The position numbers were made by a program, and so were the translations under genes. Shown one piece after another: positions 12-20,580 of a DNA stretch of 40,393 nt. The notes beneath the pieces were generated by a model that saw nothing but the letters and a program-made list of their open reading frames with translations, was not told where the DNA came from and did no database searches. The DNA lies in IMG/VR virus record IMGVR_UViG_3300020045_006075, positions 1 through 40,393 of that record, one strand, 5' to 3'. Origin of the DNA: a virus (lineage: Duplodnaviria; Caudoviricetes). Positions within the stretch are counted from its first letter, which is position 1. Every line of letters starts with the position of its first letter.

Positions 12-122
12 TTAAATTTTGCCAGTACCTTTGCATTTAGGACAGATTTTTTCTTCAACTAAACCTGAACCCTTGCAAATAGGACAGATGTCTAACTTTT
101 TAACTTCTTTTTTCTTTGCCAT
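12..122 (-). CDS. 36-aa DnaJ-type zinc-finger miniprotein (not in ORF track)
   Basis: Hand translation MAKKKEVKKLDICPICKGSGLVEEKICPKCKGTGKI*, with two CxxCxGxG motifs. Confidence 0.8.
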   Translation of the reverse strand: MAKKKEVKKLDICPICKGSGLVEEKICPKCKGTGKI

Positions 123-142
123 AACTTTGTTTAATTTATAAC

Positions 143-180
143 GGTTGCTCTAGGGCAGTTTCCCGCCCTAGAGTTGAACC
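143..180 (-). terminator. Strong hairpin after the major capsid gene (stabiliser or atypical terminator)
   Basis: CTCTAGGGC-GGGAAACT-GCCCTAGAG (148-173) with an outer GGTT/AACC pair. No U-tract follows. Confidence 0.6.
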
Positions 181-191
181 ATAGCTTAAAC

Positions 192-1244
192 TTAAGCTGA
201 AGTTATTCCAGTCAAGACACCATTAAGTCTTGGATTTTTACCCACTAGTTGTCCTAGGAGCAAAATTTGTCCAATTTCGGCATATTGATTGACTGGGTCT
301 TTCAAACCAGTCCAAGCAAAGCCAAATGACTTTGGAACTCCTGGACCGTCATATTCATTTCCTTCGTGGAACTTAGCACTCAAATCAATGTTGTTGTATT
401 TGTGTGATTTCAAACCATACCATTGGATAGAGGGTTCATTTAACATATACAAATATTGAGCAGTACATTTCTCATCTTTAACGATTGGCATACCTCTAAA
501 GTATAGAGCGTCATAACCAACTTCACCTCTTAATGCACCTTGGGAAGCAACGACTCCGAAACGAGTTACTTGTGGGTAACCCATAGCGTCATAGTTAGCT
601 CTCACAGTTGGAGCATAAAGGCTTTCAATTAAAGACCAAACGGTTTCATTACAGATACCAAGGGTTGGTTTATGTTGACCAACTTGACAAGAGTCATAAA
701 GAGTTCTCATCTTAGCAAGAGTAATTGAACCACCTGATGCTGTTTTAGTAGCAGCAAGTCCAGTATAAGTGGAACGAGCAACACCACCGTAAGTAGCAAC
801 AGTATTTCCATCGTCAACGATGTCTGGTAAGCCTAAGAAAGCTTTACCTGCTTGGGCGGTGTAGAACAAAGTTCCAACACTATCAAGCATATCTTCCATA
901 GCACTTTCCATTTCAGTTTTAACTAGGTCAAGAACTTGTGCTGGGGTTTGATTTACATCAATTTCCATACCGTTCATAGTAACTGATTGGTAATAACCAG
1001 TTGGGTTGAACGACATTTTGGCACGAGTATTAACTTTAGTGGTTGTAAAAGTATCAAAACCATCAAAAGCACCACCAGAGGTAGATTTTTGATATTTGAA
1101 AGGAACTTTTAGAGTTTCACCACTCCAAGGTTTACCATTTGAAAGGAAACGAAGTGATACAACGTTACCTGACAAGACGGTATCAACAATCTTAGGGACG
1201 ATTTCGTCCTGTGTGATTGTTTGTATATAATCATCAAATGTCAT
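192..1244 (-). CDS. Major capsid protein (HK97 fold, podovirus type)
   Basis: 350 aa directly after a scaffold-like gene. Capsid-like segments include IVPKIVD..L, GLPDIVD...YGGVARSTY, K..LYDSCQVG..KP and F.GMPIV.D. Confidence 0.9.
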   Translation of the reverse strand: MTFDDYIQTITQDEIVPKIVDTVLSGNVVSLRFLSNGKPWSGETLKVPFKYQKSTSGGAFDGFDTFTTTKVNTRAKMSFNPTGYYQSVTMNGMEIDVNQTPAQVLDLVKTEMESAMEDMLDSVGTLFYTAQAGKAFLGLPDIVDDGNTVATYGGVARSTYTGLAATKTASGGSITLAKMRTLYDSCQVGQHKPTLGICNETVWSLIESLYAPTVRANYDAMGYPQVTRFGVVASQGALRGEVGYDALYFRGMPIVKDEKCTAQYLYMLNEPSIQWYGLKSHKYNNIDLSAKFHEGNEYDGPGVPKSFGFAWTGLKDPVNQYAEIGQILLLGQLVGKNPRLNGVLTGITSA

Positions 1245-2777: not shown

Positions 2778-3791
2778 CTATTCTATCCACCCTCTTAAAG
2801 TAACTTGACAATAAGAACCAGCAAGATTACTAACCGCACTAATCTTTAAATCTGCCGTAGCAGGAATAACGATTGGTATTTCAAAATCTCTATGAAAAGA
2901 ACTATCTTCGGTTATGATTTCAAAAAATGGTTGGAAGAAATTTATTTTTGTGGTTGGGGCAGTATCATCAACTTGAGCTCTACCAATCCATCTAACAACT
3001 TTTCCTGAAGTAGTAAAACCGCTTGATAATGCTATTGAAGTAATATAAAGAGTCTTGCCTAATGGAACAGTATAAGTTAATCCTCTACCCCGAGTAAAAC
3101 CTGCTGAAATTTGTCTAACAGTATTTGTTCCAACAACAGTTCTACAAATTATATCCCCCGCAGCTACTCCACCAGTTCCAACTTGGACAGCCCGAATTGA
3201 ATTAACTCGTAAAATAGTAGTATCTGTTAATGGTACAGGTGTACCTCCTGCCATATCTAGTGTTTGAGTTTGTTGAGAATAATCAGCATCAAGATAAGTT
3301 ATTTTTACCTTTTGAACCCCTGTACCAGTTAAAGTATCATTAGCAGCCCCCGCACCAGTAGATAAAACTTCAAGGGCGGTAGCAGTAGGTATCCAATAAT
3401 AAGTTCCACCTTGAGTAATAATATCTTCCTCGGTAGAACCGACATCACCGTTATAACCTAATTTAGAAAATGGAGTATGTCCTGCTACATTTCCCTCGGC
3501 TATGTCGTAAAGATATGGCATAGATGAAACTCTTGGCTTATTATTTATATGTTTAACCCCATAAGCTACACCTAATTCATCAACAAACTTAGATGATTGA
3601 TTTCCATTTGTTTGGTTAGCCGAAGTAGCAGCTCCAGTTGGTAAAACCGATGAACTAACAGCACTTTCAACCAAAGCTCTACCAGTTGTTGGGTCCATTA
3701 AAAGACTTCTAGTTTCACGATTGGCGTCATTGGTTTCCCCTTGGACTACTGGTTGCCAATTATCATCTCTTTTAGCATTGGTATTAGCCAT
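2778..3791 (-). CDS. Probable virion structural protein (beta-rich)
   Basis: Thr/Gly/Val-rich, lies between portal and scaffold, N-terminal KRDDNWQPV motif. Confidence 0.6.
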   Translation of the reverse strand: MANTNAKRDDNWQPVVQGETNDANRETRSLLMDPTTGRALVESAVSSSVLPTGAATSANQTNGNQSSKFVDELGVAYGVKHINNKPRVSSMPYLYDIAEGNVAGHTPFSKLGYNGDVGSTEEDIITQGGTYYWIPTATALEVLSTGAGAANDTLTGTGVQKVKITYLDADYSQQTQTLDMAGGTPVPLTDTTILRVNSIRAVQVGTGGVAAGDIICRTVVGTNTVRQISAGFTRGRGLTYTVPLGKTLYITSIALSSGFTTSGKVVRWIGRAQVDDTAPTTKINFFQPFFEIITEDSSFHRDFEIPIVIPATADLKISAVSNLAGSYCQVTLRGWIE

Positions 3792-7922: not shown

Positions 7923-8633
7923 TTAAAACTTATTCCAATTAAATCTTATCTCACTTAATTGATGAGTTTTATTATAGATTATCTTACAAGCACTACCATA
8001 TCTTTTTTTCAGGATTTCGCATTGCTCTTTGATTAGGTCGGGTTGATTGTAAAGATAACTTGCTCCCCCGTCCATACTTTTCATCTTGTGAACAAACATA
8101 TATTTATACCAAGTAGCATTTGTTCTCCCACTCATTAGAAGTCTAGCCGAGATTTCGTAATCATTGAAAATTAAAAGGTTTTCCGAGTATCCGCCAACAC
8201 TCTTAATATCTTTGGCGTTCATAAATCCCATACACCAAACTGGTTGTTTTAGTTTTAGGTCTTTATGGTAATACCAGTTGTGTCCCGAAAAACTAACTCC
8301 TAATTGGCTGAACTTGTTCTTTCGTATCATTTCCTCTCCCTCTTTTAGGAACTCATCTACATTAAAAGGTTGATTGTCTTTTCTTTTCATACCAAATATA
8401 TCATCATCAGCAAATAAAAATATATCTTCACCGTTTTCAAGGGTGTACTCTACCATTGAGTTCATCATATAACCGAAACCACCGTTGTTTTTCTTTAATT
8501 GGACTATTTCTAAATTAGGTCTAGACTTTTTATACATCTCGTATTCCTGCGGTTCTACGAATAAAACTATATTAGGAATATATTTATCAATAGTAAAATT
8601 TAATCTATTTTTACTTCCGACTAGAACTTTCAT
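7923..8633 (-). CDS. GT-A fold glycosyltransferase resembling the TET/JBP-associated (TAGT/GREB1-like) family
   Basis: SKNR, FVEPQEY..Y, N.G....N, ADDD (DxD) and NDYE motifs, and a C-terminal GG. Confidence 0.75.
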   Translation of the reverse strand: MKVLVGSKNRLNFTIDKYIPNIVLFVEPQEYEMYKKSRPNLEIVQLKKNNGGFGYMMNSMVEYTLENGEDIFLFADDDIFGMKRKDNQPFNVDEFLKEGEEMIRKNKFSQLGVSFSGHNWYYHKDLKLKQPVWCMGFMNAKDIKSVGGYSENLLIFNDYEISARLLMSGRTNATWYKYMFVHKMKSMDGGASYLYNQPDLIKEQCEILKKRYGSACKIIYNKTHQLSEIRFNWNKF

Positions 8634-9867
8634 ATTTTTTCTGATTGAATTTATAAACTACATCACCGTTTTCGTCTAATCTATCGGGAATAAGAATACC
8701 GTCAAAATATTTGTAAGGACTTTTAGCACTCTTAGGAGTATTCCAGATATTCCTCATATATTCTAAGATAGACTCTTTCTTGTGTTTTCCCGCACTTACT
8801 AATCCTAATCTTTTAATCGGGGACGAACTCTTAACCTTATCTAAGAAATTATGCTCGTGTTTCTTAATGTCCGAGAATTTAACCTCTCCCGCTTTCTTGG
8901 CTTGAACTATCGCTTGAGTGAATTGACATTTAGCAAAGTTCTTAAAATAAGGACTATCATCAGGCAACCCACAACAACTTCCGCATTGACTTCTTTCCTT
9001 GTGATTGGCGTCACTAACAAAAAACTTCAGGTCAATTTCCTTACAAAGTTTTTCCATTTCCTCAATATAAGGGCGTTTGACTTCGTAGTTAAGTCTAAGG
9101 TATCCCGCCCCTTTGGATTGTAGGCGATAGAATTCCCAAAGGTCAAAACCTGCGTATTGGCTCATTAACTTATATCGTTCTTTAAGTCCATTTCCTCTGG
9201 TTTCCAAACAAAAAAACTCCGTAGATAAACCGTAAGCCCCGACTTCTTTGGCTCGCCTAATAAGTTCTAAGTGCGTTGGATTAGTAACCCCGATAATAAA
9301 AGGTCTTAATCTCAAATTAACGGCAGCCACTCCTAACTTAGCATATTCCCCAATTCCCCATAATCTTTCCTCAGGGGACGGGACACCTTGTTCTATGACT
9401 CTAGCCTTTTCCTCGTCTAAGGTAATAATTGAAACTTTGATATGAATATTTTTGGCGTCCTTTAAAACAGCTCGGTATCTTTCGTCTTTTAAGTGCCAAG
9501 TGCTTTTACTAGATAAGGAGATAGGATAATCTATCTCCCGAAAGAACTTTAAAAGTTCAAGGGTAGTACCGTGCTTTTGCTCTAAAAGGTCAAAGGGTTC
9601 ACTCATACCGCCCCATTGCATAGGGATTCGTTTCTTAACATATTCGCCAAACTCCGAACTATCAGGTTCAAGGAAAATCTTTTTGACCTTATTGACATCT
9701 ACTTGTTTAAAGTCTTTTCCCATTACACTTTCGTTGTGCATTTGCTGATAAAAAGCAAAACAGTACTGACATTTATACGAACAATAAGAGTAAGTATCAA
9801 AAGTCATCGGCATACTACAATCTAGTATCTCGTAACTCCACCTTGGACTTTGGTAATAATTTCCCAT
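8611..9867 (-). CDS. Radical SAM enzyme, spore-photoproduct-lyase-like
   Basis: DTY..CSYKCQYCFA (CxxxCxxC), GGMSEPF, IE.GVPSP.ERL, RLRP.I.GV, and an extra CGSCCG cysteine cluster. Confidence 0.9.
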   Translation of the reverse strand: MGNYYQSPRWSYEILDCSMPMTFDTYSYCSYKCQYCFAFYQQMHNESVMGKDFKQVDVNKVKKIFLEPDSSEFGEYVKKRIPMQWGGMSEPFDLLEQKHGTTLELLKFFREIDYPISLSSKSTWHLKDERYRAVLKDAKNIHIKVSIITLDEEKARVIEQGVPSPEERLWGIGEYAKLGVAAVNLRLRPFIIGVTNPTHLELIRRAKEVGAYGLSTEFFCLETRGNGLKERYKLMSQYAGFDLWEFYRLQSKGAGYLRLNYEVKRPYIEEMEKLCKEIDLKFFVSDANHKERSQCGSCCGLPDDSPYFKNFAKCQFTQAIVQAKKAGEVKFSDIKKHEHNFLDKVKSSSPIKRLGLVSAGKHKKESILEYMRNIWNTPKSAKSPYKYFDGILIPDRLDENGDVVYKFNQKKYESSSRK

Positions 9868-10457
9868 TATTTTTTAATTTCCTCTATTAAATCAGTTAAC
9901 TTAGTTCCGTCAATTTTCTTTAGATATTTCCCGTCGTTCAAGAACTCCGAAACGGTTTTAGCTTCTTCCTCGGTATCAAACATAAAGACGAGTATTTGGC
10001 TTTCACCCGAAGTTAAACCTTGAATTTCCTCAGGATTTATTCCGCCCACCTCAGAGTCTGGACCTTGATTGTAAAATCCTAATTCCCAATCTTCAAAACC
10101 TGATAATTTAAGGTCAAACTCACTATTCTGCAAGCTCGTGATTAATTCCTCTAATTTACTTCTGTCCCACCTACCCGAAATTCTATTTAAGGCTAAGTTT
10201 AAAAGCTTCTCTTTATCCCCGTCAACCTTAACGATAACGCAAGGCACTTCTTTAAGTCCTAATTCTAAGGCAGCTTTGGCTCTCATATGTCCGCCAACGA
10301 TGTAATTCTTGTGATTGATAATAATCGGCTCTACCATACCAAATTCTCTAATAGAGTTTTTAAGATTTTCAAACTCCTCTGGGGTGATTTCTCTTGGATT
10401 GTACTCAGAGGGAATAAGTGTAGCGGGGTTTAGATTTTTTATTTCTAATTCGTTCAT
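9867..10457 (-). CDS. ParB/Srx N-terminal domain protein
   Basis: L.P..YNPR, L..SI.EFG..EPI, I.GGH.R..A, LALNRISG.WD. This is the phage DNA-modification-associated ParB type. Confidence 0.9.
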   Translation of the reverse strand: MNELEIKNLNPATLIPSEYNPREITPEEFENLKNSIREFGMVEPIIINHKNYIVGGHMRAKAALELGLKEVPCVIVKVDGDKEKLLNLALNRISGRWDRSKLEELITSLQNSEFDLKLSGFEDWELGFYNQGPDSEVGGINPEEIQGLTSGESQILVFMFDTEEEAKTVSEFLNDGKYLKKIDGTKLTDLIEEIKK

Positions 10458-19146: not shown

Positions 19147-19479
19147 CTATTCTTTCCGAGTATCTTCTTTTTTCCCGAACCGCCAAAAAAATAACTTTAT
19201 TTTCCCTTCATCGGTTAAAGGTTTGGTATAGTCCACTAAAAACGAATAACACTTTTCTAACTTCCCCGACCGACCCGAATTAAAAGCCCTCTTAAATAGG
19301 GATAACCATTTTGGTAGGTCTTTCTTATTTCTTTTAAAATCTATTTTTAACTTTTCGGCAATTTCAAAGGCTTTGTCTTGCCACTCGTAGGCACAGTGCT
19401 TTTTCTTGGTGATTTCAAATTTCTTTAGACAATCACCGATACTTTCTACTTTTTTCTTTTTGTAGTAAGTTATATCCAT
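19147..19479 (-). CDS. Hypothetical basic helical protein
   Basis: 110-aa ORF, second gene after the structured element. Confidence 0.7.
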   Translation of the reverse strand: MDITYYKKKKVESIGDCLKKFEITKKKHCAYEWQDKAFEIAEKLKIDFKRNKKDLPKWLSLFKRAFNSGRSGKLEKCYSFLVDYTKPLTDEGKIKLFFWRFGKKEDTRKE

Positions 19480-19480
19480 A

Positions 19481-19693
19481 TTAAAATAAAGTTTCCCTTT
19501 GTAACTTCTTGCGTTCTTTCATAGCCAAAAAACTTTCAGGAGTAAAAATATCTACACTCCACCTTTGCATATTCCCGTCCCAATGTTTAACCAATACGAA
19601 CCCGTTAATTTCTAAACTCTCATATTGTTCTTTGTCTTGTTTAAAGAACCTTAATAAAAAGTTTCTTTTATTGTCTTTACTTATATTACTCAT
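19481..19693 (-). CDS. Hypothetical protein
   Basis: 70-aa ORF, first gene after the structured element. Ends in ..TLF. Confidence 0.7.
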   Translation of the reverse strand: MSNISKDNKRNFLLRFFKQDKEQYESLEINGFVLVKHWDGNMQRWSVDIFTPESFLAMKERKKLQRETLF

Positions 19694-19714
19694 AACTGTA
19701 TTAATAAATAATTT

Positions 19715-20019
19715 TCCCCTGTAGTTTTGATAATACTTCCCCTTCGGTTTCCCAAAGGATACGCATAATTAACTACATTGTTTTTTAATAATTTAGTTTT
19801 AAGAAGTTTTAATTTTCCCGCCTAATTTTAGAGCTAAGGTCACGCCCAGATTATCAATAGTGGTCGCCCACACAACACTCAGACTCGTCCAGTTGTAGTT
19901 TAACCGAGTAAGGTTTCCCTTTTGTGTTGTCTTCCCCCTGTCTTATTGCCTACGCCTTTAAGACAGCCTACGAACGGTCAGGTATATCCTGGTTGGAGTT
20001 AACTAAATTATTAAAGAAC
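19715..20019 (-). ncRNA. Candidate large structured RNA (or ssDNA element), family unrecognised
   Basis: Perfect 15-bp closing stem (20001-20015 with 19784-19798), nested helices, and three GNRA tetraloop hairpins readable only on the minus strand. No credible minus-strand ORF. Confidence 0.75.
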
Positions 20020-20029
20020 TTTTTGGGTC

Positions 20030-20113
20030 AAAAAATACCCCCGACTTTTTGTTGGCACAAGAGGTATCGGGAGTAGTTGATATATTATAGTTGAAAATTC
20101 CCACTTGTGCCAT
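20030..20113 (-). promoter_or_regulatory. Attenuator-like leader: terminator hairpin with a pseudoknot-forming loop
   Basis: UACUCCCGA/UCGGGGGUA followed by U6. The loop CUUGUGCCA is complementary to upstream UGGCACAAG. Confidence 0.65.
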
Positions 20114-20250
20114 AGTAAGATTATTATGCCCCATTTTTAATAAAAAAGTGGGGGTAAATCAATATCAAATTATGTCAAATAGGGTTTTGACCAAAAAAAA
20201 TCCCCTCAGCTCGTTTTTTATATAAACTCACCAAAAGGAATAAATCTATA

Positions 20251-20580
20251 TTACTCTCTTACTTCCGACTTGTCAATAAAGCCATAGTTAACCAAACTCT
20301 CTTTCATTTGTTTTCTGGCTAGTCCGAATAAAAGCATTACATCTTTGTTGACCTCGGCATCTTTGGATTTCTCTAAAATTCCATTACAAATCATTTGAAT
20401 TTTCATTGGGATAGATTTCACTTGTTCTTTGACTATTCGGCACTCATCACATAACTTGGGTAAAATTAGTTCAGATTTTAATTCCTCGGACTTTTTTTTG
20501 AGATAATTAAACTGAGCTGGTAACATTACAAACTCTTTTTTACATCTCTTACATTTTATTTTGATATCCATTTGTTTCAA
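20251..20580 (-). CDS. Zinc-ribbon protein (zf-trcl-like)
   Basis: D..I.CKRC.KEF.....Q..Y........PKLCDECR. Confidence 0.75.
   Translation of the reverse strand: MKQMDIKIKCKRCKKEFVMLPAQFNYLKKKSEELKSELILPKLCDECRIVKEQVKSIPMKIQMICNGILEKSKDAEVNKDVMLLFGLARKQMKESLVNYGFIDKSEVRE

Follow-up and report, generated by a model that had tools for sequence, protein, structure and literature searches.

RESULTS

A folded element lies in the middle of a tailed-phage record

The window, that is, the whole 40,393-nt stretch of DNA analyzed here, is a linear phage record with a CheckV completeness of 40% and ends without terminal overlap, so replication genes could lie outside it. All of its recognizable genes are on the minus strand, among them those for the major head, portal, terminase, endolysin, and holin proteins, and a Cas4-like exonuclease and a NinG/Rap nuclease are also encoded. 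Ahead of the terminase gene, glycosyltransferase, radical-SAM-like, and ParB-like genes (7923-10457) suggest a DNA-modification cluster. ARAGORN found neither tRNA nor tmRNA in the window, an Rfam scan of it at gathering threshold returned nothing, and GC skew, which is uninformative where all genes share one strand, made no turn near 20 kb. Around that position the following features were recognized, given in the direction of transcription.

20251-20580, minus strand: 109-aa zinc-ribbon ORF, upstream synteny marker of the slot described below, 85% identical in relative L055 and also found in relative L103
20030-20113, minus strand: leader, a predicted attenuator with a promoter-like ATGGCA-N18-TATAAT (20113-20084), then a hairpin (20075-20036) and a T-run, from the sequence and its relatives
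19715-20019, minus strand: enlarged EGFOA-type structured element (predicted RNA), from folding, Rfam, and pairing; its 5′ end may reach further up, near 20077
19481-19693, minus strand: 70-aa ORF, modeled as four strands and a helix, weakly PUR/PC4-like in its predicted structure (putative single-strand binder)
19147-19479, minus strand: 110-aa ORF, C-terminal domain of the lambda-O/DnaD-like type of phage replication initiator, here as a separate gene, from a profile search

The folding energy of 19715-20019 was -85.6 kcal/mol on the minus strand (z -4.17), a value that none of 100 shuffles reached, and -69 kcal/mol on the plus strand (z -2.61). When 68 sampled 305-nt minus-strand windows were compared using 12 shuffles each, the element ranked second (z -4.3; median -0.4). 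The best-folding sampled window (15-320, minus strand, z -5.4) holds a strong hairpin just past the major head gene, probably a terminator, and then a small zinc-ribbon ORF.

A pairing check of the window confirmed that the helices of the original prediction all lie where it had placed them and are fully Watson-Crick complementary, namely the 15-bp stem, CAGG/CCUG, CUGUCUUA/UAAGACAG, ACAACAC/GUGUUGU, ACUCG/CGAGU, GUGG-GCGA-CCAC, UGUAGUU/AACUACA, and the GAAA hairpin. The parts outside the pseudoknotted core described below, together with one hairpin at the border of that core, are as follows.

20001-20015, minus strand: 5′ arm of a perfect, AU-rich 15-bp closing stem, predicted from complementarity
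19860-19871, minus strand: GNRA hairpin, loop GCGA in the window and GAAA in one relative's contig (depth 3.7)
19821-19839, minus strand: additional hairpin, new to this analysis, in which both bases of one pair differ in a relative (U-A to G-C, compensatory; one contig, depth 3.7)
19784-19798, minus strand: 3′ arm of the 15-bp closing stem, from complementarity
19720-19777, minus strand: 3′ domain around a C/U-rich/G-run hairpin (19741-19760), which corresponds to the one located 3′ of most EGFOAs

Parts of the element are covered by two low-depth Logan contigs from relatives. One had 0 differences over 19870-20035 and 14 differences in 20036-20097. The other carried both the GCGA to GAAA loop change and the double change at 19821-19839; one pair of the 3′-domain stem is broken in it at 19772.

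The core is a divergent EGFOA with an 11-pair pseudoknot

The RNA had been described as unrecognized, and this description does not hold for its core, which matched the Rfam family EGFOA (RF02955) over the entire model.

19871-19998, minus strand: EGFOA core (RF02955 model positions 1-108), 35.7 bits, E 9.1e-5; E 1.2e-6 in a further scan
19968-19992, minus strand: pseudoknot 5′ strands CCAG (19992-19989) and UU-C-GUAG (19974-19968, bulged C), from pairing in the window and covariation in 23 other EGFOAs
19888-19904, minus strand: conserved 17-nt loop giving the pseudoknot 3′ strands (CUAC, AA, CUGG), from the Rfam match, pairing, and covariation

Because the score of 35.7 bits stays 2 bits below the gathering threshold of 37.7 bits, the element is filed here as a divergent, enlarged EGFOA variant and not as a curated member. 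It presents P2, the P3/P4/P5 three-way junction, P5 with the 17-nt loop, the pseudoknot, and a 3′ G-run hairpin in the same order as EGFOA. It differs in a P2 lengthened to an 8-bp stem with an internal hairpin (a 21-nt local P2 segment in the Rfam match), in the extra 15-bp closing stem, in ~100 nt more before the 3′ hairpin, in its size (~305 nt versus <200 nt for the solved EGFOAs), and in its place in a tailed-phage initiator slot. The 3′ hairpin stem is nearly identical to those of the EGFOA loci L082 and L090. Models for ARRPOF, GEBRO, and PAGEV gave no match for 19600-20300 at E up to 10.

Rfam's EGFOA model does not contain the pseudoknot, which was derived here from 23 other members and consists of 11 pairs between the 17-nt loop and two 5′ strands, 5 pairs with one and 2 plus 4 around a bulged C with the other. 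The 23 alignment rows, from which the window was left out, came from Bacillota genomes, viral contigs, and plasmids; 19 were Rfam matches over the cut-off, selected by a model that lacks the pseudoknot, and 4 (L099, L100, L117, and L119) were identified by complementarity at loci hit with a pattern or with blastn. From 16 viral loci hit by pattern, 6 were removed as non-complementary (5 of these were scanned and had no Rfam match) and 1 as a duplicate, and the Bacillota EGFOAs comprised 3 of 21 pattern matches and were found in 4 of 151 and 7 of 151 genomes of two orders, seeds included. With P5 counted, 98.9% of the alignment cells were paired versus 78.2% in shuffles, and the covariation score was 0.59 versus 0.18 shuffled, with slid controls at most 0.11. 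The covariation is thus strong within this alignment, although it is not independent counting, since the rows are relatives of one another and some invariant pairs were imposed by the search patterns.

Of the 11 pseudoknot pairs, 10 are preserved in the window, where one otherwise invariant G-C is replaced by U-A, a compensatory change. A pairing descriptor, written with the window already seen, matched the window once, 0 of 600 shuffles, and elsewhere in 751 kb only EGFOA loci, missing two true members; 21 of its 23 distinct matches, window included, have a GGGG run within 39-140 nt. The window was not detected by a covariance model of the pseudoknot alone that was derived from other members; this model is weak, with 11 pairs, 0.59 bits per position, and a poorly aligned middle. 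Since the pseudoknot that covaries across the family takes up the bases of CAGG/CCUG with its 5′ strand, this helix of the original prediction, complementary as it is, probably does not form in the RNA. Pairing of UGUAGUU with the core loop was likewise set aside because the pseudoknot uses that loop.

A loop-only pattern hit at least 50 loci in viral contigs, with no EGFOA among the matches listed; a window-shaped pattern had 2 viral matches, both inside ORFs, and the 21 genome matches with the 3 EGFOAs counted above. No EGFOA was found in 151 Patescibacteria genomes, a search in which no positive control matched, and plasmid blastn with EGFOA queries gave one 33-nt match (L062 query) and none with four other queries.

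The element occupies the slot of the N-terminal half of a replication initiator

A profile of the 110-aa ORF found 155 proteins, in which it mostly corresponds to the last ~100 residues of 220- to 480-aa proteins. For 24 of the 30 top matches, the N terminus matched PHROG initiator, O-like, or DnaD-like families, and because of these full-length relatives, the 110-aa ORF is, judged by profile, a detached initiator C-terminal domain. Foldseek found no PDB match for its model. Both the domain family and the gene position of the lambda O/DnaD-like initiators (PHROGs 1701, 6251, 270, 428, 678, 1408, and 2514) are retained in the window, whereas their N-terminal DNA-binding domain with its in-gene repeats is absent from the window and present in L055. 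When the first 130 residues of 114 long relatives were searched against the window, no convincing N-terminal counterpart appeared; the matches were the same C-terminal domain and three marginal ones (E 0.001-0.009) in unrelated places, whereas L055 was matched down to E 1e-38. The view that the phage has no visible initiator therefore needs correcting for the C-terminal domain, which is present, and stands for the N-terminal half within the window.

L055 is a close syntenic relative, in which C-domain and Cas4-like genes follow the shared upstream marker. Its slot contains a zinc-finger ORF as well as a 162-aa ORF for the N-terminal half of an initiator. The latter, which has a short tandem repeat close to its end, matches phrog_1701 (DnaD-like, E 9e-14) and phrog_6251 (replisome organizer). 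The slots are of similar length, 783 nt in L055 and 771 nt in the window.

A metagenome scan yielded three more relatives, two of them (L101 and L103) with upstream DNA and both without an N-terminal gene directly upstream. Instead, a second conserved noncoding element of ~300 nt sits in their initiator slots (L101 88-416; L103 3684-3994), with shared sequence blocks and a 3′ hairpin. Neither copy had an Rfam match, ARRPOF, GEBRO, and PAGEV included, and the element pattern was found in 0 viral contigs and, by blastn, in no plasmid. The L101 copy folds at z -3.3, and the L103 copy, at z -0.28, no better than shuffles; the L103 slot also holds a 155-aa ORF in the opposite orientation. We regard this element as a candidate new RNA class. 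Across the four genomes, the slot thus holds the protein half in one (L055), EGFOA in one (the window), and the other element in two; only three relatives show the slot, and EGFOA is there in none of these three. Single-protein locus searches found nothing.

Two side observations concern the initiator family. Stand-alone 92- to 95-aa relatives of the C-domain lie among housekeeping genes on Patescibacteria chromosomes (L120 1489-1776 and L121 1465-1743; 2 of 401 genomes), and these weak chromosomal relatives are the basis for our guess that the phage has a Patescibacteria host. In the initiator-family proteins P0013, P0021, and P0026, the C terminus is apparently fused to a membrane segment and a transglycosylase-like domain.

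A shared leader precedes the noncoding elements of the slot, and a small ORF follows EGFOA

The leader layout is common to the window, L101, L103, and one Logan contig, and the motif was not found in L055. Its hairpin loop carries a copy of the -35 side in reverse complement, and in four sequences, one Logan contig counted, differences in one copy are matched in the other. The leader is not taken to encode a peptide, as its three ATG frames have in common neither length nor sequence beyond the promoter bases, and a second antisense promoter arising from the inverted -35 copy was rejected by eye on spacing. Further up, a promoter-like TTGACA/TAATAT followed by a 50-nt hairpin (internal loop partly conserved) and a T-run lies after the 109-aa gene in the window (20193-20276, minus strand), L055 (~690-745), and L103 (~2950-3030), and may be a small RNA or a terminator.

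No homologue was found for the 70-aa ORF. PUR repeats ranked first and took several of the top 30 rows for its model, with a best Z of 5.6 (rmsd 3.5, 63 aligned) that lies within background and a Foldseek E of 0.5 or worse.

EGFOA is found on plasmids and at other loci that look mobile

All EGFOA loci inspected look mobile. They include integrase elements of ~5 kb that sit at tmRNA and have excisionase-like genes just upstream, as well as recombinase-flanked islands, inovirus-like elements with a Zot-type ATPase, plasmids, and phages. Plasmid NZ_CP118103.1 is arranged zincin-repA-EGFOA-parA. Zincin (88% identical), EGFOA, and parA are also present on a related complete plasmid, NZ_CP144923.1 of Brevibacillus borstelensis, on which tblastn found no RepA. 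On the Paenibacillus durus replicon NZ_CP009289.1, the gene before EGFOA matched a PHROG annotated as topoisomerase, and no Rep was annotated in its incomplete gene table of 29 CDS (24 scanned by Pfam, 20 by PHROGs). The equally incomplete table of NZ_CP019657.1 lists 57 features and no annotated Rep; a tubulin-like gene is found close to EGFOA there, and a CHC2 zinc-finger protein is also encoded. Phage L108 carries its EGFOA amid genes for a primase and a DnaB helicase. EGFOA is thus not always a substitute for an initiator, given its co-occurrence with repA on NZ_CP118103.1 and with DnaB helicase and primase in L108.

Some of these elements may be described in their own right. L098 (NZ_CP009289.1), L095, and L116 are Bacillota-type inovirus-like elements with a Zot-type ATPase and EGFOA, and the scanned proteins of L098 and L095 include no Rep. 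The ~5-kb integrase elements L062 (1860-7100) and L072 lie at tmRNA and contain EGFOA together with cargo and a set of two or three small HTH-type genes, with no recognizable Rep or relaxase. Separately, several phage contigs (L013, L018, L022, L035, and L038, ~1400-1720) share a conserved element directly behind a tRNA gene, which in L013, L018, L035, and L038 had no Rfam match at E 0.05; L038 also carries ROOL, and L035 an HDV-like ribozyme.

DISCUSSION

What is new here is the divergent EGFOA variant and a functional lead, the EGFOA motif itself being already known. By cryo-EM, EGFOAs form a trimer and a 3′-strand-exchanged dimer, and the available part of the preprint terms them putative small RNAs of large gene-free intergenic regions and gives no function (bioRxiv 10.64898/2026.07.01.735769). 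A plasmid or phage link may already stand in the discovery paper (PMC5737381), the supplement of which probably describes contexts. A literature search on RNA serving as a primer or an origin in phages or in plasmids of Bacillota, covering few subscription papers, found nothing on EGFOA.

Because the element sits where a relative encodes the DNA-binding half of the initiator, an EGFOA RNA in this place would likely do the origin-opening job. Some origin role, whether as RNA or as single-stranded DNA, is in our judgment probable. The more specific reading, that the element is an RNA-made replication origin (a ColE1-like R-loop or primer) in the slot of the initiator N-terminal half, is put forward tentatively, at somewhat less than an even chance. 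The original prediction had already proposed an RNA origin working with the two small downstream proteins; that idea now draws independent support from the slot, with its N-terminal half in L055, and from plasmid replication regions with and without repA, while the priming itself is a prediction. Points against this reading are the Rfam score below threshold, the miss of the window by the pseudoknot-only model, the carriers that have repA or a helicase and a primase as well, the possible incompleteness of the record, the small number of relatives with the slot (three, none with EGFOA in it), the poor fold of the L103 element, the broken pair at 19772, the incomplete gene tables and profile searches behind the plasmids scored as lacking Rep, the topoisomerase PHROG next to EGFOA on NZ_CP009289.1, the RNA I-like layout not seen in the element, and the background level of the PUR/PC4 resemblance.

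From the observed parts, namely the EGFOA-type fold, the pseudoknot, the slot, the orphan C-terminal domain, and the shared leader, we infer all later steps of a possible mechanism. Host RNA polymerase would start at or above the leader and sometimes read through the terminator-like hairpin, and the transcript would fold cotranscriptionally into the pseudoknotted core. Its G-run 3′ end would stay hybridized to the template near 19720-19695 as an R-loop, which would open the duplex and supply the primer in the manner of ColE1 RNA II. The displaced strand might be bound by the 70-aa PUR/PC4-like protein, and recruitment of the host helicase or its loader would fall to the 110-aa domain, a role that we assume from lambda O. 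The leader with its co-changing complementary copies could set the rate of read-through and hence the copy number.

The priming mechanism of ColE1 RNA II has been described (PMC5043065). The window element resembles RNA II as a noncoding RNA that would replace an origin-binding initiator, in its G-rich stretch, and in an upstream hairpin region as possible control. It has, however, no Rfam match or sequence similarity to RNA II and is ~305 nt rather than 550 nt long, and the window, unlike ColE1, retains the initiator C-terminal domain. Neither an RNA I-type antisense promoter nor, in the 305 nt, the long antisense layout of RNA I was seen, a weak plus-strand site (20098-20127) points away from the element, and in place of an antisense RNA there is the same-strand leader with its covarying complement. 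ARRPOF of the Fusobacterium plasmid pKH9, likewise pseudoknotted and similar in size, is an RNA that, like EGFOAs, forms oligomers. It lies in a replication region, one needed for rep-independent replication (PMC5737381), and forms a dimer (PMC12990946). That pKH9 has rep and can replicate without it parallels EGFOA with and without repA. ARRPOF differs in sequence, has its own Rfam model, which the window does not match, and belongs to a plasmid, not a phage.

The element might instead be a nonreplicative RNA of mobile elements, such as a regulator, an antitoxin, a protein-binding oligomer, or a scaffold, that landed in the slot when the N-terminal half was lost, with replication proceeding by recombination or through genes outside the record. 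EGFOA neighborhoods in phages are varied, EGFOAs oligomerize in vitro (bioRxiv 10.64898/2026.07.01.735769), the window encodes the Cas4-like exonuclease and the NinG/Rap nuclease, the record may be incomplete, and C-terminal-like domains stand alone in the Patescibacteria chromosomes described above, all of which would suit such a passenger. We consider it somewhat unlikely, as it must face two unrelated noncoding elements in one slot behind the same leader with the C-terminal half kept, and an EGFOA that lies between repA and parA on one plasmid and persists where repA is missing.

Alternatively, the fold could act as single-stranded DNA in an origin region, as a single-strand origin or a primosome assembly site that host factors (RNA polymerase, primase, or PriA) recognize. 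RNA and DNA are not told apart by covariation or by GNRA/GNNA loops. EGFOA occurs in elements that can be single-stranded at some stage, namely inovirus-like elements, conjugative plasmids, and small integrase elements, and the discoverers warn that their motifs may be single-stranded DNA (PMC5737381). A DNA role would also account for the coexistence with RepA and primase, but it leaves the opening of the duplex in the phage unexplained, and the promoter-like site and the leader lie directly upstream on the same strand. Single-strand origins are, to our knowledge, far simpler than an 11-pair pseudoknot with a conserved bulge. Moreover, two EGFOAs form ordered tertiary structures as RNA (bioRxiv 10.64898/2026.07.01.735769), and we judge an action as DNA to be unlikely.

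A ribozyme, self-cleaving or DNA-nicking, whose cut makes a primer end or processes the transcript, would fit the compact double-helix pseudoknot with its invariant unpaired bases and bulged C, but is very improbable: no ribozyme family was among the Rfam matches at E up to 10 (19600-20300), and the available part of the structure preprint does not mention cleavage (bioRxiv 10.64898/2026.07.01.735769).

Returning to the RNA-made origin, a broader and more speculative possibility is that any of at least two unrelated RNAs with pseudoknots, EGFOA and the uncatalogued element of L101 and L103, can take the place of the initiator half that recognizes and opens a phage origin, while the replisome-recruiting half is kept, and that EGFOA is a portable RNA origin common to integrative elements, inoviruses, tailed phages, and plasmids of Bacillota. 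Adding the present pseudoknot to the Rfam EGFOA model would improve it. For a family solved to near-atomic detail but with no function assigned, the slot swap together with the repA/parA surroundings offers a functional lead that can be tested in culturable Paenibacillus and Brevibacillus plasmids. If the RNA-made origin is true, such origins would extend past ColE1 to Gram-positive plasmids and tailed phages, some replicons without a recognizable Rep would be explained, and an RNA would have replaced one domain of a protein in evolution.
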